The notes below the pieces were generated by a model. It made no database searches and was not told where the DNA came from. It saw only the letters and a list, made by a program, of their open reading frames with translations. A stretch of 64,000 bases of DNA from an uncultured Candidatus Saccharibacteria bacterium (lineage in GTDB: Bacteria > Patescibacteriota > Saccharimonadia > Saccharimonadales > UBA4665), in assembly GCA_964446255.1 (NCBI GenBank), contig CAYUNX010000001.1:9729-73728 (forward strand), read 5' to 3'. Position 1 is the first letter of the stretch. Every line of letters starts with the position of its first letter. Position numbers and translations under genes: made by a program. Shown one piece after another: positions 39,369 to 63,523 of this stretch.

Positions 39369-39634
39369 AAGCGATTCGTTTAACGAATAAGACCTTAGTT
39401 AAGTCACGGAATTTATCGCATATGAGCATCGCACTCTTAAATTATTTCAAGCGAGCTAGACCAGGAGTATGCCTGAGTCCGGGTAAATAAACTACATTTT
39501 ATTTTCCAATTTCACAAACATTGACTAACGCTAAGAACAAACTAATTTGAAGTCCATTTTTAACTGTTGTTAATTTGATTAGTTTTTGTATTAATAATAA
39601 AAATCTATATAATGTCAAAATTGTGACATATAGT

Positions 39635-40903
39635 ATGCGTGAACAAATTGAAAGCGCTGCGGCTGGTTTTGACATTTACAGTGCAAGGAATCCTGACTAT
39701 GAGACTGGTCAGGCTATCCCTTTTAGGGTATCACCTAGTCCTCTTATTTTGTCTCAAAATCAACGCAATCAACTCGATAGAATAGGTGAAGACGTAACCT
39801 CTTATATGTTTGCCGTCGATCAACTTTATAGAGCGGACGAGCGGGTAAAAACTTTATTGGATACGGGCAAGCCAGATATTTTCAAAGAAACAACAACGCC
39901 AAGTAGCTCATATCTATTTATCAGACCAGATATAATCATGACTTCAGCAGGATTTTCGATTTGTGAAATTGAAACATCGCCATTTGGCCTAGCACTTGCC
40001 GAAATACTTAATCGAGGCTATCGTTCAAGCGGTTTTGAAACTTTAGTTAGCGACGATGTATTACTACGACATGTTGCGCAAAGTACAAGAAGTAGCGGCG
40101 ATATCGTATACAGCGCTAAGACCGCTAGCTATGCTGGGCAGCTGGGATTCCTGGCGGCTAATATTTTCTCAGGTCAAAATCGTAATTGGCAAGCAAAGTG
40201 TATTGAAGATAACAACACGGCAACAAATAGAGATATATACCGAGCATTCTATTTGTCAGAATACCTAATAGACGGCAAGGTAGGAGGTTTGCTTACATCG
40301 GTTCAAAAATCTCACATGAGCATATCACCGTCGTCAACCCCACATATGGAAGAAAAGGCATTGATGGCACTTATTTGGGATAAGCAATTTAAAGATTATT
40401 TCGTGAATGAACTTGGGTTGCCCTCAGTGTCCCATCTTAGAGAACTGATACCGCCAACTTGGGTTATTGGACGTGAAGCCGACTTTGAACCTGGCTTGCC
40501 TGGAAACATAACAAACTCTTTAGGGGTCGCTGCATTATCAACGTCGCGCAGAAAATATGTACTTAAACAATCGGGATTTCATTCACAGGCGTCATGGAGT
40601 GAGGGGGTTAAACTGCTTCACAAAATGTCGCGAGCGAAAGTCGAGGAAGCTTTAAAAAATGCAATAGACGATAAGGACTCGTTATATGTAATCCAAGAGT
40701 TTAAAAAAGCTACAGAAATACCTATGTTCTGGGATGATTCTGATGGTATTCGTAAGCTCATGAATGCACGCATTAGGTTAACACCTTATTATGGTATGGT
40801 TGGGGAGATGGTGGGTAAATTGATTGCCGCTAAGGCAACAGGATGCGAGAATACAGATTATATCCACGCAGGATCTGGTAGTATTAATACAGCCGTATGC
40901 TAA
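39635..40903 (+). CDS. ATP-grasp-like ligase (pre-ATP-grasp / glutathionylspermidine-synthase-like pattern)
   Basis: FIRPDIIMTSAGFSICEIETSPFG, VLKQSGFHSQASWSEGV, YVIQEFKK and RIRLTPYYG resemble ATP-grasp landmarks by eye. Start set at ATG 39635 rather than TTG 39575. Confidence 0.45.
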   Translation: MREQIESAAAGFDIYSARNPDYETGQAIPFRVSPSPLILSQNQRNQLDRIGEDVTSYMFAVDQLYRADERVKTLLDTGKPDIFKETTTPSSSYLFIRPDIIMTSAGFSICEIETSPFGLALAEILNRGYRSSGFETLVSDDVLLRHVAQSTRSSGDIVYSAKTASYAGQLGFLAANIFSGQNRNWQAKCIEDNNTATNRDIYRAFYLSEYLIDGKVGGLLTSVQKSHMSISPSSTPHMEEKALMALIWDKQFKDYFVNELGLPSVSHLRELIPPTWVIGREADFEPGLPGNITNSLGVAALSTSRRKYVLKQSGFHSQASWSEGVKLLHKMSRAKVEEALKNAIDDKDSLYVIQEFKKATEIPMFWDDSDGIRKLMNARIRLTPYYGMVGEMVGKLIAAKATGCENTDYIHAGSGSINTAVC

Positions 40904-40923
40904 AGTACGCTAGGAAACGAAAA

Positions 40924-41361
40924 ATGAGTATTTATATTTTAGACTGGAAACGAACGTTATATAACCCTGACACTACAGAGCTAATCGATGGTGCTGTCGA
41001 CCTACTTAAGCATTTGAGTCAACAGATTGATAGTAGCTTAATTCTTGTCGGTAAAGGATCTGATGAAATGCACAGCGAAGTCAAGCGACTTGGCGTTGAA
41101 GATTATTTTGAAGCTATTAGATTCCAAGAAGGTGATAAAGATTCGTCACTTTTTATTGACTTAGTAGATAAAAATAACCCTAAAAAATCGATTTTCATTG
41201 GTGACCGTGTTCGCTCTGAGCTTGCCATTGGTAACAGTTTAGGAGCAACAACAATATGGGTTAAACAGGGCAAATTTAGTGACGAACTGCCCATTAATCC
41301 AGTGTATGTACCAACCTACACCGTAAGATCGCTATATGAGATTTTAAATATTATTGTATAA
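40924..41361 (+). CDS. HAD-like protein with non-canonical motif I
   Basis: ILDWKRTLY replaces DxDxT (second Asp becomes Lys). GDRVRSE resembles motif IV. AGGAAA lies upstream of ATG 40924. Confidence 0.5.
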   Translation: MSIYILDWKRTLYNPDTTELIDGAVDLLKHLSQQIDSSLILVGKGSDEMHSEVKRLGVEDYFEAIRFQEGDKDSSLFIDLVDKNNPKKSIFIGDRVRSELAIGNSLGATTIWVKQGKFSDELPINPVYVPTYTVRSLYEILNIIV

Positions 41362-41369
41362 TACACTTA

Positions 41370-41750
41370 ATGTCTGAAACTGAATTCCCAAATGAAAAAT
41401 TTACATTCAAAAAGGATCGTTATTCAAAGGCACGTGGAGGTGCATCAAAGTTTCTTTTTGTGGCATGTGGTGCTTGCACTACTCCACTTTTTATTTATCA
41501 AAAAGATGGTCCTGGAGCATTGATTCGATATTATGCTGATCGTATCGTATGGCCGCCAGACCTAATTGATTATAGCCCCGATACTGCCAAAATAGGAGAG
41601 ATTGGTGCACTTGCCTGTGGATCGTGCGATAATTTAATAGCTGTTCCAATGATTTACAAGCCAGAAAATCGGCTTGCATTTCGTGCAATAACAGGCGCTG
41701 CGCACAACTTTAGGAGTGCAGCAAGGGCTGCTGCACGACTCGAGGAATAG
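41370..41750 (+). CDS. CxxC..CxxC zinc-ribbon-like hypothetical protein
   Basis: CGAC at the N-terminus and CGSC about 45 aa later. TATAAT-N7-ATG lies upstream. No family recognised. Confidence 0.45.
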   Translation: MSETEFPNEKFTFKKDRYSKARGGASKFLFVACGACTTPLFIYQKDGPGALIRYYADRIVWPPDLIDYSPDTAKIGEIGALACGSCDNLIAVPMIYKPENRLAFRAITGAAHNFRSAARAAARLEE

Positions 41751-41757
41751 TTGCAAG

Positions 41758-42396
41758 CTACGAAGTTAATTTTTTAATTGCATCGATTATAGAATTCGCG
41801 GATGTAGTTGGGTCACCATCCGAATTCACTATACTTAAATCAATAAAGGGGTGGGACATCCCGCATTCTGCTAAAGCTTCCAGTTCGGTTAAGCCCGTTG
41901 CGAGACGGTTGTTAGTGTTTCTGCCTGTCTGTTTAACTCGATCCATCCAGCTCTCGATTGAAGATGGATAAATATACACCCCTAGTAAGTTATAATCTGG
42001 TCGAATTAATGTTTGGACTCTTTGTAAGGGGTAGTCTAGGACAGGTACCTTATTTTGCGAAAGTGGCCCGAGTATACCTGATAGCGGAGTGCCATAGCGT
42101 ACACCATAGAGGTCATTCACCGCAACAAATTCCTTACGACGTTCATGATCTGCAAATTGATTTTCGCTCACACTTATCTTATCCGATTCATCAGGTCTAT
42201 TTTGACGAGTCATAAAGGGTTTTACGTAGTTAAAGTGTATAACTCCGTCACCAATTAACTTTTGTATTATCGTCGATTTCCCAACGGCTGAAGGCCCTAA
42301 TAATAGAATGAATAGGCTATTTCGCGCCAGCTTTCTTTGGGATAGATTTGCCGCTTCGGTTTCACGAAGTTTTATTGAAACACTAAATTCAGTCAC
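41758..42396 (-). CDS. Guanylate-kinase-fold nucleoside monophosphate kinase-like protein
   Basis: Walker A GPSAVGKST. MTRQNRPDESD resembles the TTRxPRxxE motif. 8-nt overlap with the upstream gene. Confidence 0.6.
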   Translation of the reverse strand: MTEFSVSIKLRETEAANLSQRKLARNSLFILLLGPSAVGKSTIIQKLIGDGVIHFNYVKPFMTRQNRPDESDKISVSENQFADHERRKEFVAVNDLYGVRYGTPLSGILGPLSQNKVPVLDYPLQRVQTLIRPDYNLLGVYIYPSSIESWMDRVKQTGRNTNNRLATGLTELEALAECGMSHPFIDLSIVNSDGDPTTSANSIIDAIKKLTS

Positions 42397-43285
42397 GAGA
42401 GTAAAGCTTAGCTTTATTGATACTGTCTTTTAATATTTTAATATGTTTCCGCATAGCTGCTTCAAGAGTCTCACCTTCATGCCGTTCAGGGTAAATTATA
42501 CTGCGTGATGCACTCACCATTAGACCGTATCCTTGGGAATCGAGGCACATGGGTATACTTGAATTAATATCTCCTCCTTGCGTCCCAATCCCAGCAAGAA
42601 CAATTGGTGTATCGCCAATTGTATTTCGTATACCTTTCAAATTCTCTTGGTGAGTTGCGCTGAGGACAGGTATGATGTTTTGGTTTTCGTTCCATTCATT
42701 TAGACTTTTTTCTAATATGAATCTCCAGAGTGGAACTCCACCTTTCATTTCAGCATTTTGGATTGTGTCCGCCGAACTATTAGATGTATTCACGCAGACC
42801 ATAATAAGTTTATCTTTCCATTTGGCAAAGGGGGCAATTGCATCCAAGCCAAGGTATGGGTTAAGCAATACCGCGTCAGCATCAAGCTCTCCGAAAACAA
42901 AATCGGCAATACGTTCAGCAGTATGACCTACCTCTCCAAATTTTCCATCACAAATTCGAAGAACGTTTGGTTGCGTGTCTTTAAGATATTGAAAAATATT
43001 TAATAATGCACGTTGACCAGAATCCCCCATAAAGTAATTTGAATTAATTTTGAAATCAACCGCATGGTCTGCAGTGGCATCAATAATACGTTGGCCAAAC
43101 AACGTAAAGCCATCAGCGATTTGTTGTTTGCCTCCGACTTCATCCCAAATCTCTTGAGGTATAAGTGCAGGGTTAGGGTCAATGCCGACGCCAGCCATAG
43201 AATCAATATCCAGCCATCGCTGGTGCAACTTTTCAATAATAGCATTACCCGAACTATAACTCTGATCAATTTTCCCTGTCTTCAT
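42389..43285 (-). CDS. Orotidine-5'-phosphate decarboxylase family protein (type-2-like)
   Basis: VDFKINSNYF, CDGKFGEVGHT (variant of DxKxxDIxxT) and LAGIGTQGGD (type-2 PyrF GIGAQGG motif). Confidence 0.6.
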   Translation of the reverse strand: MKTGKIDQSYSSGNAIIEKLHQRWLDIDSMAGVGIDPNPALIPQEIWDEVGGKQQIADGFTLFGQRIIDATADHAVDFKINSNYFMGDSGQRALLNIFQYLKDTQPNVLRICDGKFGEVGHTAERIADFVFGELDADAVLLNPYLGLDAIAPFAKWKDKLIMVCVNTSNSSADTIQNAEMKGGVPLWRFILEKSLNEWNENQNIIPVLSATHQENLKGIRNTIGDTPIVLAGIGTQGGDINSSIPMCLDSQGYGLMVSASRSIIYPERHEGETLEAAMRKHIKILKDSINKAKLYSRD

Positions 43286-43291
43286 CTCGAT

Positions 43292-44506
43292 TTACCCAAC
43301 TTGCTCATGGCTATTAAAATATATTTCTGGATATTTGTGCTTTGCGAGCACATGGTCGATCGAACCATTGGCACCTGTAGTACCAGTCTTTTTCCGTGTA
43401 ACATTGATACCTGCCTGTTCAATACCACTTATCTTCTTCTTATTATCTGTCTGTAGAGTTACGGATTCTACACCCAATGCCCCAAGGATGCGACCTGCTC
43501 CACCGTAAGTGCGGATATCAAATCGGGTACCTATTACTCGTAATGCAGCTTCAATTGTGTCAACGGCTGTTGGGTCGTGTAGATTTTTAACCACTGGAAT
43601 GCCTCGTTTATGACCCTCCGTTTCCATTTTAGTCGCCGCACCATACCCCCGGCCATCTTGTGCGGGTATATGAATAATTGCGCCATCTGCTTTGAGGATA
43701 ATATCTTCTAGTGCGGTGTGTAATTGCTCTCTACAATCACAACCTCTGTCATCAAATACTTGACCAATATCGCAGCCTGAGTCAACACGAACTAGCATGT
43801 TTTTTGTTGCCATTGTTCCGAGCGAATTCGGCGAGAAAATCTCATAATATTTCCAGGGGTCATCAGGAATGGTAACACCGTAAGAAAAAATCTCACCTCC
43901 GCGGAAAAAACTTTTTCTTGCGTGTAGAATCGTCATTCCATTTACTGCTATTGATGTTTCGTCCACTCTATTATTTTCACCGAGAGTCATGTATTTCTTG
44001 GGTTCTCGAAGCCCAAGCATAGAAACGACCTTCTCGTAATCAGTCGTTGAACGATGATTTGTCTGATCTGGTGATGCTACCTGAGGGTAGTAGGCCATGC
44101 CTTCATTGCACCTGCGTATAATTACTCTTTTACCGTTAGCTGATAACTCGTTATCTAAGGATATAAAATCTGGGTGGTTTGACTCTGTTAATTTAAAATC
44201 GGCCTCATTGATATCCAGGATAGTGACAGGTACCTTAGGGTTATGTATTAATTCCTCCGGTCGACCGTTTATGAACAAAGCTTGAAGATATGACGGGTAC
44301 GAGCCACTGGTGACCTCAACAGGACTCAACCATACATCGTTATCACCTGGTAGATCAAGTGGACCACCGTAAAAAACAGTTACATCGTCGTTTTGTAAGT
44401 ATATGAGCTGTTGAAGTGTTTCGTGGTAGCTAGCTTCAGTTAGCGGGGTGTTATTAGCATTGAATTGGTGTTGTTCATGCGTCCACTGGCTTGTAAGTAT
44501 TGACAT
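43292..44506 (-). CDS. GTP cyclohydrolase II-like enzyme with unrecognised N-terminal domain of about 220 aa
   Basis: VDSGCDIGQVF..RGCDCREQL has three Cys at the RibA zinc positions. QDGRGYG matches RibA QEGRGIG. Confidence 0.6.
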   Translation of the reverse strand: MSILTSQWTHEQHQFNANNTPLTEASYHETLQQLIYLQNDDVTVFYGGPLDLPGDNDVWLSPVEVTSGSYPSYLQALFINGRPEELIHNPKVPVTILDINEADFKLTESNHPDFISLDNELSANGKRVIIRRCNEGMAYYPQVASPDQTNHRSTTDYEKVVSMLGLREPKKYMTLGENNRVDETSIAVNGMTILHARKSFFRGGEIFSYGVTIPDDPWKYYEIFSPNSLGTMATKNMLVRVDSGCDIGQVFDDRGCDCREQLHTALEDIILKADGAIIHIPAQDGRGYGAATKMETEGHKRGIPVVKNLHDPTAVDTIEAALRVIGTRFDIRTYGGAGRILGALGVESVTLQTDNKKKISGIEQAGINVTRKKTGTTGANGSIDHVLAKHKYPEIYFNSHEQVG

Positions 44507-44532
44507 AGTAAGTAATTATAACAAATAATTGA

Positions 44533-45165
44533 TTATAAATCAATAGAATTATATAAGGTATTGATATTTTCTGAGTCTTTTTCGTGAAGATGGCACGAAT
44601 CGATAAAATGATAATAATTTCCTGTTTCAATACCAATACGATTGGCAATATATTTCTGCACTGCAATAAATTCTAATAAATTCATAAGGAGTTTTTTGTA
44701 CGCATCCGAAGAGTGCGCATGAACATGGAGCTCCAATTTCCCATGTTTTATTCGCGCCCAAACAATTTGGGTGCACGGTGAAAATTTTTGAGATTGGTCA
44801 ATGTTCTTATCCCACATGGAGATCTGTGATTCGCCAGAGGGTGTTTCCGCACTGAGAGATTGTATTAGAAACTCAATCTGTGAATTGGGGTTATCAAACA
44901 TACGATGGTGATATATTTTAGTCCATTCATGAGACACTTTACTTTCATTGTTCCCGGTGACAATATACTCGTTGATAACATCTATATCATGCTGCAACAT
45001 CGGAAACCGACTATCCGCTAACTCTAACTTAGGATATTTAATATGAATAAGCGTTGGCTCGTCTCGCATATACTTAGAATTACCAGTGTTTTCCCCGTTT
45101 CTAATTAGGTTTTTAAAAACCTCTAACCACGCTGCGTTTGCAGTGTCTGCGTTTATTGAAATCAT
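44533..45165 (-). CDS. Thymidylate-synthase-superfamily (ThyA-fold) protein, short form
   Basis: SPC nucleophile motif. HAHSSD..MN compared with YQRSCD..FN, and DSCHLH compared with GDTHLY. Start at ATG 45165; the ORF-track extension overlaps the next gene. Confidence 0.55.
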   Translation of the reverse strand: MISINADTANAAWLEVFKNLIRNGENTGNSKYMRDEPTLIHIKYPKLELADSRFPMLQHDIDVINEYIVTGNNESKVSHEWTKIYHHRMFDNPNSQIEFLIQSLSAETPSGESQISMWDKNIDQSQKFSPCTQIVWARIKHGKLELHVHAHSSDAYKKLLMNLLEFIAVQKYIANRIGIETGNYYHFIDSCHLHEKDSENINTLYNSIDL

Positions 45166-45172
45166 AGTGAAA

Positions 45173-45178
45173 ATTATA
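45173..45178 (-). promoter_or_regulatory. Candidate -10 box (TATAAT), leaderless start of the island's minus-strand operon
   Basis: The minus strand reads TATAAT-TTTCACT-ATG, with the ATG at 45165. Confidence 0.45.
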
Positions 45179-45229
45179 CACCACAGTTTCGCGAAGTTAT
45201 CACAAAACCCCAAAACATTCTTACTTACT

Positions 45230-46099
45230 CTAGATGATGCAGTGGAGAGCGCGGGGTACGATGGTGACGGTGATAGTTTCGCCCTTGTGTAGTTGCTTGC
45301 GCTCACCGTCCATTTGCAGCCCCATGTCATGCTCGCAAGTAAACTCATAGGTTTTAACTTGTTTTGCGTCGTTGACACCGACAGTTATTGCACGGAAAAA
45401 GTAGCTTGCAAGGTCCAGAATTGCGCCAGCTTTGATTTCCATTAGCTCAAATTTACCATCACTGATTGAAGCCCGTCCGGTCATTTTGATCATTTTGGAC
45501 ATGCGTCCGGCGTTGAGGAATAACAGATTGTCGAGCCGTTTTGTCTTGCCGGCTACTTTGACCCTGACTGGTTTGATATTGAGCGCTTTCCAAAAAGCGA
45601 GCCGAAACTCGCGGATGGGGTGATAATCGTGTTGTTTGAGTAAGTCGTTTATTTGGCTGGTAAGGCCGACGCCGGCGTACGAATGTGCGTAACGTGTCCA
45701 GCCGGTGCTTGATGTTATTTGCAGGACGTCGATGTGCTCGGCGCGGCTCGATGTGATACGGCGGATTACATCGCCGTGATGCATGTAATTGTAATGGTCG
45801 TTCGCGTTGCCGGCAGGCAGCAAACCAGTGGTAGTGTCGGGGTTTTTTGACTGTAAAATACCATTGATGACTTCGTGGTAACCACCGTCGCCACTTGCGC
45901 TTATGATCATGGTGTGGCGGTCACGCTGGGCAGCTTTACGGGCTAGGTCTTCGCCGTGTCCGGGGCGTTTTGTAGCCATTAGCTCGACCGGTAATCCTAT
46001 GCGTCGGTGTACGCGAGCCACAAACCGTTCGGCGGTTTGCTTACTCTTGCCTGTGCTGGCAGGGTTGTAAATAACAACCAACCGTTTGACCTCACTCAT
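45230..46099 (-). CDS. Diacylglycerol/lipid kinase family protein (YegS/BmrU-like)
   Basis: VVIYNPASTGK, ISASGDGGYHEVINGIL and LPAGNANDH. Start at ATG 46099. Confidence 0.75.
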   Translation of the reverse strand: MSEVKRLVVIYNPASTGKSKQTAERFVARVHRRIGLPVELMATKRPGHGEDLARKAAQRDRHTMIISASGDGGYHEVINGILQSKNPDTTTGLLPAGNANDHYNYMHHGDVIRRITSSRAEHIDVLQITSSTGWTRYAHSYAGVGLTSQINDLLKQHDYHPIREFRLAFWKALNIKPVRVKVAGKTKRLDNLLFLNAGRMSKMIKMTGRASISDGKFELMEIKAGAILDLASYFFRAITVGVNDAKQVKTYEFTCEHDMGLQMDGERKQLHKGETITVTIVPRALHCII

Positions 46100-46105
46100 A
46101 GTGGT

Positions 46106-46111
46106 AGTATA
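46106..46111 (-). promoter_or_regulatory. Candidate -10 box (TATACT), leaderless start
   Basis: The minus strand reads TATACT-ACCACT-ATG, with the ATG at 46099. Confidence 0.4.
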
Positions 46112-46186
46112 ACACCGAACAGCATGCATGTTTTGACTGTCTTAACAAATGATATAGTCTTTCTAGTGATTCGACATTAGATATTT

Positions 46187-46650: not shown

Positions 46651-49600
46651 CTATTTTCTCGTTGTCCAGTTGTAGGCATTTTGGAACATGGTAAGCCACG
46701 GTGAGTCGGCTGGCCAGTCGGCGGGGTGCCACGAAAGCTGACGAGTTTGAAAAGCGCGCTCGGGGTGCGGCATCATGATGGTGGCGCGACCATCGGGTGT
46801 CGTCAGCGCGGTGATGCCTTGCGGAGAACCATTCGGGTTCGCGGGGTATGTTACGGTTGGTTCGTGTCGATTGTCGACGTATTGAGCTACGACTAGGCCG
46901 GCTTTTAGTGCGGCAGCTTGCTGCTCGGCGCTTTCGAACTGGGCGAAACCCTCACCGTGCGCTACAGGGATTGGTAGTACAGAACCATCGAGGTTTTTGA
47001 AAAAGATTGACGGCGATTGGTTTATCCGGACAAGTGGCAGTCGTGCCTCGAATTGCTCTGAAACATTATGTGCAAATTTTGGCCAATCCGCAGTTCCAGG
47101 GATGAGCTCTTTAAGACCAGACAGCATCTGGCAGCCGTTACACACACCGAGCGTAAACGTATCTGGTCGAGCAAAATAATCACTGAATTGTTGCCGTAGG
47201 TTAGAGTCGAGCAATATGGTTTTAGCCCAGCCTCCCCCTGCCCCAAGCACGTCACCGTATGAGAACCCGCCGCATGCGACTAAGCCAGTAAAATCGGTAA
47301 GACTGACGCGACCAGCAATGATGTCACTCAGATGCACATCTACAGCCGTAAACCCTGCAGCAGTAAAGGCTGCGGCCATCTCTATTTGCCCGTTGACACC
47401 CTGCTCACGGAATATGGCCACCTTCGGCTTGTGGTTTGAATTGTCAACGCTTAATTCTTGACTCTTTACTCTCGAACTTACCGAATTTAACCCTAGGTCA
47501 TTGTCGTCAGAAATCGCCTCGAACTCTTGGTCTGCGCAATCGGGGTTATCGCGTAGCTTTTGGACTTGGTAGCTGGTGTCGGACCACCAGGATTCTAATT
47601 GTGCCCGAGTATTTTGATAGACGATTTCACCAGCATCTTTAAACACAATGTTTTGCTCTTTAGTCGGTTTACCGAGGGCATACACGTGGTTGCCGATTGC
47701 ACCTGACAACACTTGGGATACAGTTTTTTCATCTGTTGCTTTTACCTGGATGACAACTCCGAGCTCTTCGTTGAATAGGCGCTCGAGGTTGCTGCCAGGC
47801 AAACCTGCGAGGTCAATATCGAGCCCATAGCGGCTTGCAAACGCCATTTCGACCAAGGTCGTTAGCAATCCGCCGTCAGAACGATCGTGGTAAGCAAGAA
47901 TTTTGCCCTGTCGTTTCAAGTCCGTTATAGTCTCAAAGAATTTTTTCAGCACTGCCGCGTCAGCGTCGGGTGTTTCATCGCCAAATTGGTTATACACTTG
48001 GGCGAGTGCCGAACCGCCTAGTCGGGTTTTGCCGCCCGATAAGTCAACAAACAACAGGCTTGATTCTACTGACACGTCAAGTTGAGGAGTTAGTGTTTTG
48101 GTGACGTCGCGAACTGGCGAAAACCCAGTGATGATTAACGATAACGGCGAAGTGACGCTTTTTTGCTCGCCATCGTCTTGCCAAACGGTACGCATACTAA
48201 GAGAATCTTTGCCAACCGGAATGGTAAGGCCAAGCGCTGGGCAGAATGATTCACCGACGGTGCGGACCGTATCGTAGAGGTGCTGGTCTTCGTGTGCATA
48301 ACCGGCAGCAGCCATCCAGTTGGCAGACAGTTTAATATCTGACAGCTTACTGACATCTGAAGCGAGCATATTGGTGAGTGTCTCGGCAATAGCCATACGA
48401 GCCGAAGCAGGAGCATCGATAACGGCCAGTGGCATTCGTTCGCCCATGGTCATCGCTTCGCCGTAGTTGGAGTCGAATGAAACGGCTGTTATGGCGACGT
48501 CGCTGACTGGCACTTGCCACGGCCCGACCATTTGGTCGCGGGTGACGAGGCCAGTGATGCTCCGGTCGCCGATGGTGATGAGAAACTTTTTACTACCGAC
48601 CGAGGGCAGATGGAGTACACGTTTTACGGCATCTTGGAGCGTAATTTTTGCGAAGTTAAGTGCATCGTTTTTAACTTCGGTGCGCTCAAATGACCGAGTC
48701 ATCTTGGGTGGTTTACCGAACAGTGTCGTCATCGGCAGATTAACGGTATCGTTCTTCTGCAAGCTGTCGTGCACGATGAGCTGCTCATCGGCGGTGGTAA
48801 TGCCTACCACGGCATAGGGGCATCGCTCGCGCTCACAAAGCTCTTTGAATCGTGCGACATCTTCTTCGCTCACGCCAAGCACGTAGCGCTCCTGGGCTTC
48901 ATTGCACCATATTTCGAGTGGTGACAGACCTGGCTCGGCACTTGGGAGGTCGCGTAGCTGGAATATTGCACCGACGCCTGAATCATGTACCAGCTCGGGT
49001 AGTGCGTTGCTGTAGCCACCAGCACCAATGTCGTGGATGGAGATGATAGGATTGTTTTCGCCTAGCGCCCAACATGCGTCGATAACTTCTTGGCAGCGGC
49101 GTTCCATTTCGGCATTGCCACGTTGAACTGAAGCAAAATCAAGACTCGCGGCACTCGTACCGGTTTGCATGCTCGAGGCAGCACCACCACCGAGACCGAT
49201 GAGCATTGCGGGGCCACCGAGGACGATAATTCGAGCACCTGGCTGGATGGTGTTCTTTTGGACATGCACGTCACGTATGTTGCCGAGTCCACCCGCTATC
49301 ATGATAGGTTTGTGGTAGCCGTAGACTTCGTTGTCTACTGCTTGCTCATAGGTCCGGAAAAATCCAGCGAGGTTTGGGCGGCCAAACTCATTGGCAAATG
49401 CTGCCCCACCGAGTGGTGCATCTATCATAATGCCGAGCGGCGAGGTGATGCGGTCGGGTTTGCCATACGGCTTTTCCCAAGGTCTCGGCGCGTCAGGTAG
49501 ATTCAAGTTTGAAACTGTAAAGCCAGCCAGCCCCATTTTGGGCTTGGCGCCGCGACCTGTCGCACCTTCGTCACGGATTTCGCCACCGGTTCCGGTTGCG

Positions 49601-50520
49601 GCACCGGGGAACGGCGCAATGGCGGTCGGGTGATTATGTGTCTCAACTTTTATAACGGTGTGAATTGGCTCTTTGTGGTAGTCGTATGTGTGGGTGATAG
49701 GGTCTGGGAAAAATCGACCAGCAGTTGGCCCCGCGAGCACAGCCGCATTGTCAGAGTAGGCCGATAAAACATCCTCGCCACCTTTTTCGTAGGTGTTTTT
49801 AATCATTTTAAATAAGCTTTTGGGCTGCTTTTCGCCGTCGATTACCCAGTCGGCATTGAAAATCTTGTGGCGGCAATGCTCGCTGTTTACGGCGCCGAAC
49901 ATCATGAGTTCGGCATCGGTCGGGTTACGACCGAGCTCTGTGTAGGCATCGACGAGGTAGTCAATCTCATCATCGGCGAGCGCAAGTCCGAACTCACTAT
50001 TAGCGCGCCGCAGCTCGTCGCTTCCGCCCGACAAAATATCAACTATGATAAGTGGTTTAGGTTGAGCGTGGCTAAACAGTGTGTCAGTTTCTTTTTCGCT
50101 CGTGAGAACAGCGTCGGTCATGCGGTCATGCAAAGCGGGAGCTACCAAGTTGCGGTCAAGTGTTTTCGGTGCCGTGATGTGGTAGGCGATGCCCCGCTCG
50201 ATGCGACGTATTTGGGTAAGGCCGGCATTGTGTGCGATGTCTGTCGCCTTGGATGACCAGGGTGAAATGGTGCCTGGCCGCGGCACAACGAGGAATAATT
50301 CTCCACTTGGTTGCACCTCACTTGGTGTGTCGTAGGTCAGAAGAAGCTCAAGTTGCTTTACTTGATCGGCACTAAGGTCTTTTTCGGTCTCGACTATATG
50401 CACATAGCTGCCGTTCACATTGGTTACACTTGGTTCAACCGCTTGTAGCTTGCTTAAAAGTTTTTGACGGCGAAAGTCTGACAGCGCGTTGGCTCCCGTG
50501 TAGAGTTGCAAGGTGCTCAT
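46651..50520 (-). CDS. purL: Phosphoribosylformylglycinamidine synthase, single-chain large form
   Basis: 1289 aa. Has an FGAM-synthase core and a C-terminal glutaminase domain (GVCNGCQML...VAHGEG). Confidence 0.9.
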
Positions 50521-51629
50521 GAGCGTACCTCCAGCGTGTCCTCGCTAAACGTGATGTTTTTGGGCTTAATGACGACTTGTTTAGCGCCAGCCTCGACGTG
50601 CCCTGCTCTTGTGGCTCGCAAGTTGTGTTTCTTGGCCTGCGCAAGCACCGCTTCGGTGTCTCTTGGAGATACATAGATGGCAAAACCTACACCCATATTG
50701 AAATTGCCGTACATCTCAGTGTCATCTACACCTGCCACCTTTTGCATGTGCAAAAATTCTGGTTGCGGCTCGAGAATCGTGTCGATGACATAGCTAAAGT
50801 CTGCGCTGGCTCGCATGAGTTTGCGCCAACCATGACCGGTGACATTTACCATATAATGTGGCACGACGCCTGCATCTAAAATGTCCCGAACGAGTGGTAT
50901 GTACAGATGTGTTGGTGTGAGGATAGCCTCACCAAAAAGTCGCCCATCAGACAGCTCTGTTTCATACAGTTTTGAGTCTTGCTCGTACAAATGCCTGACA
51001 AATGAAATGCCATTGGCATGGATGCCGCTGCTCTCGATGAAAATGATTTCGTCACCGTCCGCGAGTTTGTCGCCGAGCACAAGCCGACTCTTTGGGTTAA
51101 TGATGCCGACGGCTGAGCCACCCAAGTCGATGGTCTCGGGGTTAATGATACCCTTGAGTGCTGGTGTTTCACCACCGCCCCAGACAGCGCCGATAGTATT
51201 GCAGGCGGCGGCCCAACCATTGACGAGGTCAGTGGCGCGTTCGCGGTCATTCATCCAAGCTCCGTCGCCGAGAGCAAAGTAAGCGTTGACGACTTGTGGC
51301 ATAGCACCAACCACGACGAGGTCATTGACTATCATGGCAACAGTGTCCTGCGCGAGATTGTCGTAGTACGTTTTGCCCGTAATGTTTCTGACGACATCGG
51401 CAACGAGGTTTTTAGTGCCAAGCCCTTCGACGACAAGTGCGCGGTATGCGTTGGGCTCTTCCCAGACATAGGCCGATTCGCCGCGGCTCGCACCAACTTC
51501 GCTCATACCAAATGCGCCCAAGTTACCGCTTGTCGTTTGCGCCTGTTTTTGCGCTAAAACTTTTATGGGGTCCAATGCGGTATAGTCTACTCCCGATGCC
51601 GCGTAGGTTTGGGTTGATGGTTTGCTCAT
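50517..51629 (-). CDS. purM: Phosphoribosylformylglycinamidine cyclo-ligase (AIR synthase)-like
   Basis: [11 protein letters not shown] and [12 protein letters not shown] resemble the PurM motifs DGVGTK and VNDI..GA.P. 4-nt overlaps on both sides. Confidence 0.75.
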
Positions 51630-52174
51630 AGCGGGGCTCCTTCTTGTTTGACTTGATGCAAAATAAAATTCGTACGACTCTCTACATTGAGCGCTGGTAC
51701 CGTTACTACTTCAATGCCGTACTCTGAGTATGCATCGATAAGCAAATCGTGGAGTTGGTTAGTGAAAGCTGCATCTTCTGTGCGTGCATAATCTTTTTCA
51801 AATTTACCAAGTGGCTCAAGGAGGAATACTTTTTTATAAGTAGCACTCTGAATAAGTTTTTTAGCCCATGGCTCGATAGTGTAGTCATATGCTTTCAAAT
51901 ATGCGGTGGTATCATGCATTCCACGATCAAAAAATGTAGTTTTTTTGGGGTTAAGAGTTGACTCGATATCAGATTTTCTTTGGAGTACATCTTCTTGAAA
52001 TTTTTTCTCATCACGGCGAAGTTCTTCGATGGATATACCATTACCTAAACTTTCGTCTATTACAGAACGCGCTGCCTCGGGCACAACTAAGTAGCCAAGC
52101 ATTTCTAATTGCGTCAGTAACGTCGTTTTACCTGTGGATGGTCCACCGGTGATTACATACCAATTATTGTTCAT
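51626..52174 (-). CDS. P-loop ATPase/kinase (AAA_28 / NadR-kinase-like pattern)
   Basis: Walker A ITGGPSTGKTTL. 182 aa, lower GC. Embedded in the pur operon by 4-nt overlaps. Confidence 0.5.
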   Translation of the reverse strand: MNNNWYVITGGPSTGKTTLLTQLEMLGYLVVPEAARSVIDESLGNGISIEELRRDEKKFQEDVLQRKSDIESTLNPKKTTFFDRGMHDTTAYLKAYDYTIEPWAKKLIQSATYKKVFLLEPLGKFEKDYARTEDAAFTNQLHDLLIDAYSEYGIEVVTVPALNVESRTNFILHQVKQEGAPL

Positions 52175-52977
52175 TTAACGTTCGCCCCGCCGACAACAAT
52201 TGCTCCGACCGCATTTGCCAAACGCGCCCAGGTAGCATGCGAATTCTCTGGATTAAGCAGGTGGAATTTGACGCCAGCAGTTACAGCCATTACGCCGTCT
52301 TTTATCCGATCGTCACCCACATACGCCATACGAGCAACATCCTCAGCGGGAAGATGTAACATGGGCGGTAGGTTGAACTGATTTCGCCAGGCAGTGTGTG
52401 CATAACGCATGATAATTGCAGATGGTTTAGTCGGAGTATCACGTTTCTCAGACGCAGCCATACCAGTAATGGCCTCTTGCGCAAGCAGTATGGTGGGTTG
52501 TTGCACTCCCCATACATCATATGTCTTAGCAATAAATGGCTCGTGCCCAGACGATACTATCCCATCGGTTACTGAGGCACCTTTCTCGCGGGCTTCTTGT
52601 AGTCTAATCGCAAAATCAAGATAACCCTCAGTTGGTTTCGGCCATTGCGGTGTAATCTCATCAAGCAAAACCGAAAGTTTGACAGCGTCGAGTTGTTCGA
52701 GTAGGGCCATCTGTTCTGAGCGCTTTGCATCTGGTGCAAGTTGTTTGACGATTTCTATTGGCGCGCGGTTACACAGACCGCCATTTGCATGGAATTTTGC
52801 GAGTACTCGAGTGCCGAATACTTGGTCAATAGCTGAATCGTAGGCTGATCCAACACTTATGTTATGGGGAGAAGGGTCGAAGGTGCGCGCAACTGTCCCG
52901 TCAAAATCGTAACCGACAAAAGTATCACCGGCAAAAGCTACGAGTTTTTCCTGGGGGGCAGTTGGCACTGTAATCAC
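52171..52977 (-). CDS. HAD-like hydrolase
   Basis: Motif I GYDFDGTV, Lys in TKPS, motif IV GDDRIKD. Confidence 0.5.
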   Translation of the reverse strand: MITVPTAPQEKLVAFAGDTFVGYDFDGTVARTFDPSPHNISVGSAYDSAIDQVFGTRVLAKFHANGGLCNRAPIEIVKQLAPDAKRSEQMALLEQLDAVKLSVLLDEITPQWPKPTEGYLDFAIRLQEAREKGASVTDGIVSSGHEPFIAKTYDVWGVQQPTILLAQEAITGMAASEKRDTPTKPSAIIMRYAHTAWRNQFNLPPMLHLPAEDVARMAYVGDDRIKDGVMAVTAGVKFHLLNPENSHATWARLANAVGAIVVGGANVK

Positions 52978-53468
52978 GCAGTTTCACCTTGGAGTTTGGT
53001 GTCGGCGGTGATAACGGCGTCATGCTGGGCTTGGCGGAAACTCGCATATTTGTGAGCGAGCTCAGAGTCGTTCAGCGCCAAGATCTCAACTGCTAAAAGC
53101 GCTGCATTGCGAGCGCCATTCTCGGGTAGCGTAGCCAGTGGCACGCCAGGAGGCATCTTGATACTCGACCAAAGCGCCTCGTGGTCGTGGTTATCACGCT
53201 TGACCGGTACAGCGATGACTGGCAGAGGTGTATGCGAAGCGGTCATACCAGGCAGGTGTGCTGAACCGCCTGCGCCTGCGATAATAATCTTGAGTCCCCT
53301 CTCGGCCGCACTGGCAGCGTATTCTGCCATAACATCTGGTGTACGATGTGCAGAGATGATGCGGACTTCGTGCGCAACACCGAACTCAGCAAGCGTATCA
53401 GCGGCTGCTTGCATAACGTCGAGGTCGCTCTCTGACCCCATAATAACTCCAACTACTATGTCACTCAT
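52974..53468 (-). CDS. purE: N5-carboxyaminoimidazole ribonucleotide mutase
   Basis: VGVIMGSESDLDVM and AGGSAHLPGM motifs. 164 aa. Confidence 0.9.
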   Translation of the reverse strand: MSDIVVGVIMGSESDLDVMQAAADTLAEFGVAHEVRIISAHRTPDVMAEYAASAAERGLKIIIAGAGGSAHLPGMTASHTPLPVIAVPVKRDNHDHEALWSSIKMPPGVPLATLPENGARNAALLAVEILALNDSELAHKYASFRQAQHDAVITADTKLQGETA

Positions 53469-54130
53469 GATAGTTCCTCCATTAGGTCGTTTAGTTCAGA
53501 AACGGTGTGTATGATAGCAGTCGGTTGTGCGTCCTGTAAGCGCTTTTCGGAGTTGTTGCCCCCAGTAATCGATATGGTGCGGAGCCCCAGGTTATGGCCG
53601 ATGCGGATTTCCTCTACGGTGTCGCCTACGATAATTGTTTCAGATGGACTGATGTTGTTCTCCTCGAGGTGTGTTTCGAGACGATGCTGCTTGCTCGTAT
53701 GATGCATCTCCTCGGTTCCGCCGTTTGCGAGTACCGCATCAAATAGGTCTACCAGCTTCAGGCGTGAAAGTTGCAGATAGATGCCTTCGACAGTGTGGTT
53801 ACTCAGTATCACGCATGAAATACCCTGTTTCCGTAACGCTTCCAGGGTTTTTTTGGTACCTGGTCGAGTACGTGCGTGGGCAGCGAGGGGCTCATAGATT
53901 GGGTGAAACTTCGCAGCAATTTCAGCAGACTTTGCGTCGAATGCTTCGCGGCTGATGCCAAGATTTTCGTAAAAACGGTATAGTGGCGCATCGTATGTGT
54001 CGCGGTACCGCTCAAGACTAAGTGGTGGTATCCCTAAGACTTTGACCTGGCTGGCGTTGACCGCCTCGAGCACAATCTTGGTGTCATCAAAAAGCGTGCC
54101 GTTCCAATCGAATACTACGAGCTTAATCAT
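53465..54130 (-). CDS. HAD-superfamily hydrolase (phosphoglycolate-phosphatase-like)
   Basis: Motif I VVFDWNGTLFDD, motif II ILSNH, motif IV VGDTVEE. Confidence 0.6.
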   Translation of the reverse strand: MIKLVVFDWNGTLFDDTKIVLEAVNASQVKVLGIPPLSLERYRDTYDAPLYRFYENLGISREAFDAKSAEIAAKFHPIYEPLAAHARTRPGTKKTLEALRKQGISCVILSNHTVEGIYLQLSRLKLVDLFDAVLANGGTEEMHHTSKQHRLETHLEENNISPSETIIVGDTVEEIRIGHNLGLRTISITGGNNSEKRLQDAQPTAIIHTVSELNDLMEELS

Positions 54131-55263
54131 ACGCTCAAAAGTCTCTCAGCTTTTTCAGCATTCTGACGGGCTTCGGCGATGGTCGTTGCTGTGGCGGTGA
54201 TGTGGCCCATTTTGCGGTCGATTTTGGTGGGAGATTTGCCGTACAGATGCAAGCTAACACCGGGGATGGCGAGAATGTCAGCGACACCTTTTACTTCTGT
54301 CGGGCCGTCGCGTTTACCAAGTATGTTGACCATGACGGCAGCTGGTACGACCATATCGACATTGCCGAGTGGTAAGCCGGCGATGGCGCGGATATGCTGC
54401 TCGAACTGCGATGTCCGAGTAGCTTCTGTGGTGTAATGCCCGCTGTTGTGGACGCGTGGTGCAATCTCGTTGACCAGTATTTGACCACCCTGGGTCAAGA
54501 ACATCTCGATGCCAAATGTCCCCGCCCCTTCGAGGAGTCCAGCCACATTTTGCGCAACTGCTTTGGCTTGCTCAAGTTTGTCGGTTGCAACTGGTGCGGG
54601 CGTAAGTGTCTCGACACAGATGTTGCGCTCGTGAATCGTCTGAGTAATGGGGTAGACAACCACATCACCGGCAGTGCTACGGGCGACCATGGTGGCAAGC
54701 TCTAGCTCAAAATCGACAAGTGCTTCAGCGTACAATTCCCGCCCGTCAAATGTTGATAACGCTTTTTCGACTTCGATTACAGAGCGAACGACCATGTTAC
54801 CGCGGCCGTCATAGGCGCCGTGACGAGTCTTGATTATCATGCTGCCACCATAACTCTCGAGGGCTTTGAGTGCAGAAGCAGGGTCGGTAATCTCGCAGAA
54901 TGGAGCCACGGGTACGCCTGCACTCGCTAGGAACTCTTTCTGGGCAAACTTGTCCTGTATGAGGCGAATGGTACTCGGTGCGGGGTTAATGTGCGCTCCA
55001 CTGGCCGCTAGCTCTTCGAGTACTTTCGTATCGAGGTGCTCAATCTCGACTGTTATAAAATCGGCTTTTTTGGCTAAAAGTTTCAATGCATCGGCGTCGT
55101 AGAGGTTGGCGACGATTTGCTCAGCGCCAACTTGCGCAGCTGGGCAGTTTGCGCCTGGGTCTACCACGACGACGCGGAACCCGAGTGGCAGAGCGGCGAG
55201 CGTCAGCATGCGCCCTAACTGACCGCCGCCCACAATACCAATGGTCTGCTGCTCACCTTCCAT
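54127..55263 (-). CDS. purK: N5-carboxyaminoimidazole ribonucleotide synthase
   Basis: IGIVGGGQLGRML N-terminus and ATP-grasp body. ATG 55263 is preferred over TTG 55269. Confidence 0.85.
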   Translation of the reverse strand: MEGEQQTIGIVGGGQLGRMLTLAALPLGFRVVVVDPGANCPAAQVGAEQIVANLYDADALKLLAKKADFITVEIEHLDTKVLEELAASGAHINPAPSTIRLIQDKFAQKEFLASAGVPVAPFCEITDPASALKALESYGGSMIIKTRHGAYDGRGNMVVRSVIEVEKALSTFDGRELYAEALVDFELELATMVARSTAGDVVVYPITQTIHERNICVETLTPAPVATDKLEQAKAVAQNVAGLLEGAGTFGIEMFLTQGGQILVNEIAPRVHNSGHYTTEATRTSQFEQHIRAIAGLPLGNVDMVVPAAVMVNILGKRDGPTEVKGVADILAIPGVSLHLYGKSPTKIDRKMGHITATATTIAEARQNAEKAERLLSV

Positions 55264-55341
55264 ATACAATCATCATACCGTATCTGATAAAAACTCGCCA
55301 CGCCATTTGTCTCTTTGGAACGATTAAGTGGTTGTGTGACA

Positions 55342-56031
55342 TTATTTTCGCTTCCAGGCAGCAAGGAGCAGCGGAAGTGCAAATAACATTAGAACAAAGT
55401 AAAGGCCGATGTACGCCACATGCCCTGGGACAGTACCGCCGTTGTTGGCTATAATCGTAGGGAGACTACCAAGAGCATAATTAAGGAATATCGCGCCCCA
55501 AAAAATTATGAAAAAACCAATTTTGTAGCTAGTTTCAAACACCGCTCGTCTTTCGTGCAATTGCCGTTCATCAAGAGCAATGGTCTTTTTTCGAGAAACC
55601 CAGTACAAATCTTTTTGGATAGCGCTCAATATTGTCGTTAGTACCAAACACGCGAGCCAAAAACCAGCCGAGATGTTCTCATAGATGAACCTATCACTAA
55701 AATTGCTATCTGCTGGGTCAAACAACAGGCTTTTAACTGTGGCGTAAAAGCCAAATACTATTGTTGCAAGCGTGAGTGCTCCAATTGTTTTCGCAACTCG
55801 GCCATGTGTGTAGTCGTCGTTTGTTGGGTTTCGCCTTGAAAGATTTTGGATGAACAGGATTGCCACAATTAATGTAAGTATAACTGCGGCTAAAAACGTC
55901 AGTGGCAAAAATACCATGAACATGCTCGCGCTACCGTCTAGTAATGATCCCCCGTAAGCTATAGCCGACAATACCCAAAAAACTGCACAAGGGACCAAGA
56001 TCCACTTTGGAATTATTTTTACACTGTTCAT
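55342..56031 (-). CDS. Hypothetical polytopic membrane protein
   Basis: 229 aa with about 6 hydrophobic helices. 4-nt overlap with the upstream HTH gene. Confidence 0.5.
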   Translation of the reverse strand: MNSVKIIPKWILVPCAVFWVLSAIAYGGSLLDGSASMFMVFLPLTFLAAVILTLIVAILFIQNLSRRNPTNDDYTHGRVAKTIGALTLATIVFGFYATVKSLLFDPADSNFSDRFIYENISAGFWLACLVLTTILSAIQKDLYWVSRKKTIALDERQLHERRAVFETSYKIGFFIIFWGAIFLNYALGSLPTIIANNGGTVPGHVAYIGLYFVLMLFALPLLLAAWKRK

Positions 56032-56261
56032 ATACCCTCCTTATTTTTAGTGAATAGCGGCCCAAATGGCTTGTCAGAAAAGATGGTCGTTATATCAACC
56101 TTAAAAGTTTCGGCGATTTTGAAAGCAAGCTCAAGGCTTGGTGAGTAATCGCCGCGTTCTATAAAACCGATGGTCTGGTAGTTTACGCCGATTTTCTCGG
56201 CCAGCTCCTGGCGGGATATGCCCTGTTCAGTGCGAAGTAATGCGATGCGGTTGTATACCAT
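56028..56261 (-). CDS. XRE-family HTH transcriptional regulator
   Basis: QELAEKIGVNYQTIGFIERG helix-turn-helix. Start at ATG 56261. Confidence 0.75.
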   Translation of the reverse strand: MVYNRIALLRTEQGISRQELAEKIGVNYQTIGFIERGDYSPSLELAFKIAETFKVDITTIFSDKPFGPLFTKNKEGI

Positions 56262-56355
56262 AACACAATAAATTATTGCACGAACACAACAAAATGTAAA
56301 TAACAATAACAAAGATTCTGTAATTTCTGGTAACTAAACAATACAAATACGGCTT

Positions 56356-57135: not shown

Positions 57136-57219
57136 ATACGTATCATATCATTGAACTCAGAACATCGATTAGTGTTCTCATTTTCATTTTGGCGCTCAAC
57201 GGTCGAATCGCCTCCGTGG

Positions 57220-57225
57220 TACAAT
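57220..57225 (+). promoter_or_regulatory. Candidate -10 box (TACAAT), leaderless start
   Basis: TACAAT-AGTTGT-ATG, with the ATG at 57232. Confidence 0.4.
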
Positions 57226-57231
57226 AGTTGT

Positions 57232-58182: not shown

Positions 58183-58325
58183 TACTTGTTTGTGTTATCT
58201 CGACCGCAGTGGAGAGATCCTCTCAAAACAGGTATACTATTTGCATACAAATTGAGAAGATTTCTCCGCATCACTTTGTTTGAAGTCGAAATGATAGTGA
58301 CCGTGGGGAAAATGAGGAGCTACAT

Positions 58326-60997: not shown

Positions 60998-61026
60998 TTT
61001 TTATCTTGGTTTACACAAGTACTAGA

Positions 61027-63519: not shown

Positions 63520-63523
63520 AGCG

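Follow-up and report, generated by a model that had tools for sequence, protein, structure and literature searches.

The nearest known system to the genes described here is the URC pathway with its UTP cyclohydrolase. URC1 is a homologue of GTP cyclohydrolase II (GCH-II) and is now called UTP cyclohydrolase (PDB 7EEV, 7EJ3). In yeast, uracil is raised to a nucleotide before its ring is cleaved by the products of the URC1 and URC6 genes (PMC7530994); PMC12507026 lists, with the URC literature, a paper on UTP cyclohydrolase (Zhang, Wei et al., ACS Catal 2021). We analyzed a stretch of 64,000 nucleotides from an uncultured Candidatus Saccharibacteria bacterium (contig CAYUNX010000001.1, positions 9,729 to 73,728), hereafter the window, for which an original prediction, made by a model from the sequence alone, had mentioned this pathway in passing. 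The window contains a cassette of five genes, named C to G (41370-45165), adjoining a gene pair, A and B. The five genes are the functional unit; with a probability of roughly 0.35, they encode a dedicated pyrimidine-nucleotide line that would end in hydrolytic opening of the base, as a bacterial analogue of URC. The features of the locus are:

A: 39635-40903, plus strand, 422 amino acids (aa), no known family (from the list of open reading frames, ORFs)
B: 40897/40924-41361, plus strand, minimal protein of the haloacid dehalogenase (HAD) fold with a DWKRT motif I
C: 41370-41750, plus strand, 126-aa Zn-binding protein with a probable beta-tent fold
D: 41758-42396, minus strand, P-loop nucleoside monophosphate (NMP) kinase of the Gmk fold
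E: 42389-43285, minus strand, paralogue of type-2 orotidine monophosphate decarboxylase (OMPDC)
F: 43292-44506, minus strand, 404-aa two-domain protein with a divergent catalytic domain of the GCH-II family
G: 44533-45165, minus strand, 210-aa short ThyA-fold protein
Indel segment: 41362-45229, no strand assigned, containing C, D, E, F, G and the promoter of G, from the collinear comparison with locus L120
Promoter region of the G-F-E-D operon: 45166-45229, minus strand, with TATAAT at 45178-45173 and ATG at 45165, read from the sequence

The seven ORFs are intact and tightly packed, with 7 nt between the stop codons of C and D and an 8-nt overlap of D and E, as originally described. The lower GC content suspected from spot counts is also real: the region is the lowest 5.8-kb segment of the 64 kb (GC 0.402, mean 0.482, sd 0.025) and the strongest tetranucleotide outlier (z = 4.3), a compositional deviation that exceeds chance. 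The segment 41362-45229 has a GC content of 0.41-0.43 against 0.49 in the rest of the window, and GC at third codon positions (GC3) is 0.26-0.37 in the island against 0.44-0.64 in most of the flanking genes measured, the exceptions, low too, being pyrE and a 544-aa ORF (61-63.5 kb).

The seven genes are nevertheless not the single unit that had been proposed, as shown by comparison with the locus whose A homologue is nearest to that of the window (65% identical amino acids). This locus, L120 (L- and P-numbers are our labels for fetched loci and protein representatives), aligns collinearly with the window, 66-73% of the nucleotides being identical. Its A-B pair aligns to 39608-41326 and is directly followed by a DAGK-like gene aligning to 45230-46119 and by purL aligning to 46662-48348; the stop codon of B lies 5 nt from that of the DAGK-like gene, and C, D, E, F and G are absent. 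The segment 41362-45229 is therefore a discrete 3.9-kb five-gene indel set beside a resident A-B pair. Because of the deviant composition, insertion is the likelier direction, i.e. acquisition of C-D-E-F-G as a block. The segment shows two marks of a horizontally acquired genomic island, deviant composition and presence/absence with respect to a close relative, and no tRNA, integrase or direct or inverted repeats of note were found at the cassette borders in the window. In other genomes, the cassette has flanks unrelated to those of the window. In two unrelated genomes, L004 (6978-8021) and L005 (5296-6141)/L006 (671-1516), the cassette has genes of the rve transposase/integrase family 2-3 kb upstream.

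The GCH-II likeness of protein F was confirmed, with the Pfam GTP_cyclohydro2 domain restricted to residues 232-371, preceded by an N-terminal extension of ~190 aa. It stays below the curated cut-offs for the canonical enzyme (70.2 bits for TIGR00505, cut-off 205.85; 72.8 for PRK00393, cut-off 148). With its AlphaFold2 model, which is confident (pLDDT 88), Foldseek retrieved GCH-II (4rl4, 2bz0) and UTP cyclohydrolase (7eev, 7ej3), the latter with an E-value of ~1e-8 over 324-355 columns and a TM-score of only 0.38. In the profile alignment, residues 241-376 of F match residues 244-377 of UTP cyclohydrolase. In RibA numbering, the three Zn cysteines C54, C65 and C67 correspond to C245, C256 and C258 of F and are invariant in 21 homologues, as are the residues lining the triphosphate and alpha-phosphate, R49, R94, R128 and K154 (R240, R286, R332 and K358 in F); Q70 and K101 are retained as well. 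The covalent-arginine mechanism once proposed for RibA has lost its support (PMC13151069), and the conservation of R128 therefore shows just a retained alpha-phosphate site. By contrast to these retained residues, H51 is replaced by D242, E53 by G244, D58 by Gln and Y105 by E297 (Leu in the Parcubacteria homologues). UTP cyclohydrolase retains the His, Glu and Tyr where F has changed H51, E53 and Y105, and a Streptomyces RibA paralogue without a Tyr105 equivalent, studied by Spoonamore and colleagues in 2006, reportedly stops at the formylated product. An insertion after the GRG loop, common to UTP cyclohydrolase, is present in part of the F family, including the F of the window. F thus represents a third clade of the GCH-II family, which we designate “DSGC”.

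Protein E was correctly called OMPDC-like, matching Pfam OMPdecase and exceeding the cut-off of TIGR02127 (147 bits, cut-off 110.6). It harbors all catalytic and ligand motifs of OMPDC (FKIN with its Lys, DGKFGE, NTSN, GTQGG and SASR), the third Asp of DxKxxD being Glu in the window's protein and Asp in most relatives. Members of the E clade score 130-181 bits with TIGR02127, against 229 and 251 for the canonical pyrF of cassette-bearing genomes, and L004 and L007 have a canonical pyrF in addition to E. E is therefore a paralogue, in a clade separate from canonical pyrF. No pyrF lies beside the pyrE-pyrD genes of the window (64 kb visible), unlike in L004, where the order is pyrF-pyrE-pyrD, and E may double as OMPDC in the genome of the window. 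A more distant clade of OMPDC-like partners (L008, L028, L007 at 9487-10344, L023 and L032) has DxKxxE, DSN in place of TSN and PWFG in place of PYxG; with an Asp at the position reading O4/N3 of the base, this clade may act on another base, possibly one with a 4-amino group.

The guanylate-kinase fold proposed for D is supported by a Pfam Guanylate_kin match of 62 bits, and its score with NCBIfam guanyl_kin (65.3 bits) is below the cut-off of 160.45. D retains the P-loop GPSAVGKST and the motifs TRQNR and RYGT, with equivalents of R41, R44 and Y81 of mouse GMK. S37, Y53, E72 and D103 of the mouse enzyme are the residues that bind GMP specifically, and in the alignment to 1lvg they are replaced in D by P, a gap/I, A and P, respectively. 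D is thus a Gmk-fold NMP kinase that has lost its guanine pocket. The idea that D is a missing UMP kinase was rejected, as the window encodes a bona fide PyrH. The window also contains a second Gmk-fold protein (8766-9497, minus strand, 243 aa), which scores 40 bits with guanyl_kin against the cut-off of 160, and neither of its two Gmk-like genes has the appearance of a canonical guanylate kinase.

Protein C is indeed a CxxC..CxxC protein, its cysteines C33, C36, C83 and C86 being invariant in 25 relatives. The two knuckles are ~50 residues apart in a domain of ~110-125 aa, and the family, with 554 representatives, has further invariant motifs, namely KDRYxxxRGG, YQKDGxG (YQKDGPG in the window) and DRI. 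Pfam searches over 25 members gave only matches below the gathering threshold: Yippee-Mis18 in 9/25 (best E = 0.002), the At4g08330 beta-tent family in 7/25 (1.6e-4) and RIG-I_C-RD in 6/25. The model of C has a pLDDT of 77, and the Foldseek top ranks are MsrB, the cereblon CULT domain and YPEL5, all with E > 0.1. Taken together, C is likely a Zn domain of the beta-tent fold. A role as a CULT-type uridine binder was discarded, there being no tryptophan cage and no significant match.

Protein G has the predicted ThyA fold (Pfam Thymidylat_synt), and its best NCBIfam match is the methanogen-type thymidylate synthase TIGR03283 (75 bits, below the cut-off of 174.55). It retains R21, W83, Y94, C146, S167, D169, N177 and H207, among which C146, N177, D169, Y94 and R21 are conserved in 12 relatives. 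The segment 59-79 (W80 helix) and the last 55 residues (the C-terminal tail that closes over the folate) are missing. Similarity to the C5-hydroxymethylase MilA (5b6d) was found with an E-value of ~1e-4. The start codon of G is preceded, at a distance of exactly 7 nt, by a TATAAT, with no Shine-Dalgarno sequence, and this position suggests that the G-F-E-D mRNA could be leaderless. The TATAAT-N7-ATG signal that had been reported thus holds for G and fails for A, where the nearest TATAAT is ~22 nt upstream of the ATG; the use of this signal by resident genes is a statement of the original prediction. Scans for promoters and terminators did not rise clearly above background, and nothing here rests on them.

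The conservation of the neighborhood was examined in two sets. A first census compared the seven proteins by phmmer with 32 loci fetched through F, with counts given over 27 loci; a metagenome scan with a profile of C gave 545 relatives, and its locus counts are over the 80 loci kept. Homologues of F at about 50% identity belong almost entirely to metagenome-assembled genomes of Candidatus Saccharibacteria/Saccharimonadales and other Patescibacteria. The cassette family is present in ~24 of 185,579 species representatives, all of the Candidate Phyla Radiation (CPR), in addition to many metagenome contigs, and is restricted to CPR/Patescibacteria. In the census, F, E, D and the convergent C co-occur in nearly all Saccharimonadales loci; E adjoins F in 26/27 loci, and C is co-located with F/E/D in 20/27. 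G lies upstream solely in the closest clade, and more distant loci retain just F+E(+C). In Parcubacteria, the genes are co-directional, in the order C, F (~270 aa), E, D. In the loci found through C, 23/80 have a GCH-II-like gene beside C, ~21/80 have E and/or D, and 10 have a C-F-E-D operon. F, E, D and C therefore stay together across Saccharimonadales and Parcubacteria, with different flanks and in two operon layouts.

Gene fusions point in the same direction. E and D are fused in L049 and L113, C is fused to a GCH-II domain in P0235, to Gmk in P0240, P0265, P0267 and P0324, and to NTPase_1 in P0345. Seven loci also have a separate NTPase_1 gene next to the cassette. Conservation and fusions thus place C in the minus-strand cassette and not, as had been assumed, in a plus-strand trio with A and B; its co-location and fusions lead us to infer a role as partner subunit of the cassette. 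By a by-eye reading, the Gmk-fold kinase is replaced in L062 and L068 by a cytidylate-kinase-like kinase. The claim that these are not scattered housekeeping genes is supported by the F-E-D-C linkage, the fusion proteins and the coexistence of canonical pyrF with E in two genomes; the homologues do co-localize elsewhere, and D, F and G have lost defining residues of the canonical enzymes.

Some variants of the cassette were also observed. A ~270-aa protein encoded beside it, divergently from the ThyA-like gene, in L009, L011, L014, L015, L016 (1180-2001), L019 and L026, and also in L062 (5598-6296), combines an NTPase_1 (THEP1-type) domain and a TPR segment, both from weak Pfam matches, with a SWIM-like Cys/His tail recognized by eye; its NTPase_1 domain is the one also fused to the C domain in P0345. 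In the complete genome L004 (CP064992), two ORFs stand in place of the ThyA-like gene and two in place of the Gmk-like gene (9479-9948 and 12064-12809), through either frameshift decay or assembly errors, and F, E and C are intact. Two copies of C are present as tandem paralogues in L024 (4511-5237), L049 (4595-5336), L066 and L067, and flank F-E-D in L051 and L052. Finally, GCH-II-like paralogues form a tandem pair in L068 (4263-5084 and 5094-6002).

The genes A and B behave differently. A has more than 233 relatives, uniformly ~420 aa long and with no Pfam domain in any of them. Its assignment as an ATP-grasp ligase was not confirmed: single-sequence PDB searches, Pfam and NCBIfam searches, including Pfam over 23 members, a PDB search with a 23-sequence profile and an hhalign comparison with PurK of the window (probability 0.2%) were all negative. 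The motifs VLKxSG, VIQEF and CENTD were recognized by eye. The HAD likeness of B was confirmed (Pfam Hydrolase_like, E = 3e-8), with weak matches to YjjG-type pyrimidine nucleotidases, and DWKRT does replace DxDxT, a change kept in the CPR homologue. In HAD motif I (DxDxT), the Asp at position +2 is the general acid/base. A (~420 aa) and B (~150 aa) form a widespread unannotated two-gene module of CPR (window, L036, L037, L079, L112, L120-L124). The pair is found without the cassette in L036/37, L120, L121/122 and L123/124, and is a resident pair, each gene being the constant partner of the other in many CPR genomes. In L079 and L112, an operon of a GCH-II-like gene of another subtype with A-B is divergent from C. 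Here A-B again adjoin C and a GCH-II-like gene, independently of the arrangement in the window, making a functional link of the pair to the cassette possible, though not the rule.

From the fold families, the kept and lost catalytic residues, the co-conservation, the fusions and the indel, we infer a substrate, an order of steps, a ring opening and a role for C as follows. E, the OMPDC paralogue, would first provide a UMP-type mononucleotide, which D (or the Cmk-like kinase) would convert to the diphosphate and a general nucleoside diphosphate kinase to the triphosphate. The Zn-dependent F, together with C, would then cleave the alpha-beta phosphoanhydride, and a Zn-activated water would attack the base, giving a ring-opened ribotide. 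Where present, G may modify the uracil-type substrate or catalyze an exchange at its C5/C6, as a side entry. A pyrimidine is favored over guanine because PyrH is encoded in the window, the guanine pocket is lost in D and a Cmk-like kinase can substitute for D; with PyrH available, D would be superfluous for ordinary UMP. The fusions of E and D are expected for consecutive steps. This scheme is also supported by F sharing with UTP cyclohydrolase a two-domain layout of ~400 aa in which the catalytic domains coincide in position, and by the retention in G of C146 and of N177, the residue that specifies uracil.

Several observations weigh against this line of base opening. By profile, F is closer to RibBA (68 bits) and RibA (63) than to UTP cyclohydrolase (19.6, E = 0.004), at matching positions. 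As F differs from both enzymes at H51, E53 and Y105, its substrate and chemistry may be neither of theirs. In G, R126 is replaced by Gly, R127 by Glu/Asp, R166 by His/Asn and Y209 by His, and three of the four phosphate-binding arginines are gone in this clade; the Parcubacteria homologue in L054 retains Lys, Arg and Arg at the three positions. C occurs without nearby F, E or D in about half of the long C loci, and is therefore a more general module with a wider role. URC4 (DUF1688), uracil phosphoribosyltransferase (UPRT) and urea amidolyase are absent from the Pfam listings of the neighborhoods and from the recurrent neighbor families, a result that covers neighborhoods and not whole genomes. 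Furthermore, a catabolism fed from OMP is odd, the gene order F-E-D suits a different order of steps equally well, and the proposal is built on sequences and predicted structures.

The same gene order lends itself to a CPR-specific chemistry that would be new. The DSGC enzyme, in complex with its beta-tent subunit, would turn a nucleoside triphosphate into a ring-opened or rearranged carboxylated ribotide, which E would decarboxylate and the fused or neighboring kinase re-phosphorylate (order F-E-D), and the product would be a new nucleotide-like metabolite or cofactor instead of a degradation product. We consider this possibility unlikely.

An equally doubtful option is the one favored in the original prediction, a dedicated pathway for a modified, probably C5-substituted, uracil nucleotide. 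The dedicated and co-conserved gene set is borne out; the C5 idea is weakened, as the ThyA-like gene is optional (13/27 loci of the first set, 6/80 metagenome loci) and its arginines are lost. In a version directed to an antimetabolite, G would add the C5 substituent, D would activate the nucleotide, F and C would tailor or rearrange the base, E would either decarboxylate a 6-carboxy precursor in the biosynthesis or serve as a resistant duplicate of the target enzyme, and A and B would ligate and dephosphorylate. The nucleophile and N177 of G are intact, the E paralogue coexists with canonical pyrF, and duplication of a target gene is a common pattern of self-resistance. The cassette is moreover rare, patchy and mobile-looking (24/185,579 species representatives, the indel, and rve genes 2-3 kb away in L004 and L005), and A-B adjoin C and a GCH-II-like gene in two lineages. 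However, roughly one cassette in two lacks G, A-B are mostly found in places where the cassette is absent, and among the genes recurring in the neighborhoods there is none for an exporter, a glycosyltransferase, a methyltransferase or another tailoring enzyme; production of nucleoside antibiotics is not known from CPR genomes.

A purine line would fit the best family matches, guanylate kinase for D and RibA/RibBA for the catalytic domain of F, as well as the absence of a Tyr105 equivalent in F. D would then be a divergent guanylate kinase and F an enzyme of the GCH-II/III type whose diamino- or formamido-pyrimidine ribotide would lead to a product resembling a flavin, a pterin or another cofactor, with E acting on a later intermediate. 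The loss in D of the equivalents of S37, Y53, E72 and D103 makes this improbable, as do the Cmk-like kinase standing in for D in L062 and L068, the constant partnership with an OMPDC paralogue whose uracil- and orotate-binding motifs are intact, and the lack of ribD, ribH and ribE in any of the neighborhoods listed.

The fusions of C to three enzymes acting on phosphate tails (kinase, NTPase and cyclohydrolase) and the NTPase_1 gene beside the cassette in seven loci could also be read as control of the nucleotide pool. F, with C as a subunit sensing nucleotides or triphosphates, would destroy a non-canonical or surplus nucleoside triphosphate, perhaps of a pyrimidine, for house-cleaning, growth arrest or anti-phage depletion, and the kinase and NTPase_1 would channel substrates. 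The weak likeness of C to the RIG-I C-terminal domain, a triphosphate binder, agrees with this role, and RibA itself releases 7-10% GMP (PMC13151069). We nonetheless judge this reading quite improbable, since it leaves the tight linkage with the OMPDC paralogue unexplained, the cassette lies among pur/pyr biosynthetic genes in the window, L004 and L007, and the defense and viral searches were negative. Anti-phage defense was rejected, as none of the seven proteins matches any PADLOC defense model. A phage origin or a role in DNA hypermodification was likewise rejected: PHROGs gave only generic thymidylate synthase and Gmk families, IMG/VR viral contigs yielded no relative of F or C, and matches in phage and plasmid collections were limited to the RibA-like C-terminal domain.

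Plain housekeeping, with pyrF, gmk, thyA and ribA divergent, as is common for CPR proteins, and clustered by chance, is very improbable. In its favor, E exceeds the curated PyrF cut-off, the window lacks a pyrF beside pyrE-pyrD unlike L004, and the resident PurM and PyrE also fall below NCBIfam cut-offs. Against it, the fusions and linkage join enzymes with no common housekeeping pathway, E is present alongside canonical pyrF, the scores of D, F and G amount to just 0.34-0.43 of their cut-offs with defining residues gone, the family is found in 24 species representatives only, and a close relative lacks the whole block.

At higher coordinates than the cassette, the window harbors a large set of genes for nucleotide biosynthesis, the last three of which are below the curated cut-off or were read by eye:

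Nucleotide-biosynthesis supercluster: 46651-64000, with purL, purM, purE, purK, purC, purB, pyrC, pyrE and pyrD among its members
NadR-like kinase: 51626-52174, in the supercluster
ORF of 268 aa, unknown: in the supercluster, listed between the NadR-like kinase and purE
HAD phosphatase: 53465-54130, in the supercluster
pyrC (dihydroorotase-like): 59933-60997
pyrE (phosphoribosyltransferase, pyrE-like): 62881-63519
pyrD (probable): 63524 to the end of the window

Among these resident enzymes, PurM scores 185 bits against a cut-off of 236 and PyrE 109 against 150. With its pur block, its pyr genes, pyrH and a gene for adenosine deaminase, also present in the window, the host is one of the larger, biosynthetically competent Saccharimonadales. 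A second low-GC patch (0.42) at 61027-63519 comprises the minus-strand 544-aa ORF (GC3 0.385, no NCBIfam match) and pyrE (GC3 0.366), and was possibly acquired as well.

Much of bacterial diversity belongs to CPR/Patescibacteria, which have a drastically reduced metabolism and a heavy dependence on host nucleotides. A conserved, horizontally moving operon joining an OMPDC paralogue, a re-specified NMP kinase, a new clade of the GTP/UTP-cyclohydrolase family and a new Zn-binding partner domain would add a new piece to their nucleotide metabolism. Among the leads are a third functional clade of GCH-II that is directly testable, an unannotated family of partner domains with 554 representatives, and an example of automatic annotation that would miscall four genes as pyrF, gmk, thyA and ribA. 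The natural fusions make reconstitution in vitro straightforward. In the literature searched, we found no paper combining these genes or mentioning the cassette or its CPR restriction, and no described pathway of this composition, in agreement with what had been stated originally.

The components were compared one by one with known systems. Type-2 PyrF (TIGR02127) shares with E all catalytic and ligand motifs, and the curated cut-off is exceeded, but E has CDGKF(G/A)(D/E)VGHTA where PyrF has LDAKRGDIG, adjoins a GCH-II-like gene (26/27) and is sometimes fused to the kinase. D resembles guanylate kinase and other Gmk-fold kinases such as PhnN in its P-loop, its arginines binding the NMP phosphate and its YG(T) motif, whereas the four residues binding the GMP base are replaced and a Cmk-like kinase takes its place in related cassettes. 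G has the short form of ~200 aa, the catalytic Cys, N177, D169 and Y94 in common with the methanogen-type short thymidylate synthase (TIGR03283) and C5-hydroxymethylases (MilA), but remains below the cut-off, lacks the folate tail and the W80 helix, and belongs to a Saccharimonadales clade without the three phosphate arginines. The size, CxxC spacing and weak recurrent matches of C recall beta-tent Zn domains (Yippee/Mis18, cereblon CULT, MsrB, the RIG-I C-terminal domain), from which it differs by the absence of the CULT tryptophan cage and of the MsrB catalytic motif, and by its own invariant motifs and fusion partners.

For F, the comparison involves two enzymes. With RibA of the riboflavin pathway it shares the catalytic fold, the Zn cysteines, the Arg/Lys residues lining the triphosphate and the best sequence scores, but it has a ~190-aa N-terminal extra, replacements at H51, E53 and Y105, a score below the cut-off, no riboflavin genes nearby and a linkage with pyrimidine enzymes. 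With UTP cyclohydrolase and URC it has in common a length of ~400 aa, an N-terminal extension, the position of the catalytic domain, the GRG insertion (in part of the F family) and the logic of acting on a nucleotide first. It reaches, however, only 19.6 bits and ~14% identity in the structural alignment, and has D-S-G-C in place of H-x-E-C and Glu/Leu in place of Tyr105, so that the URC1 signature of H-D-E-C with Tyr105 is lacking. The partners differ as well, being UPRT, URC4, urea amidolyase and URC8 in yeast and an OMPDC paralogue, a Gmk-fold kinase, a beta-tent protein and a ThyA-like protein here. The enzymes of the cassette are thus of known superfamilies, while their combination, a DSGC cyclohydrolase, an OMPDC paralogue, a re-specified kinase, a beta-tent partner and, in some cassettes, a short ThyA, differs from that of URC and has no counterpart in the literature searched.

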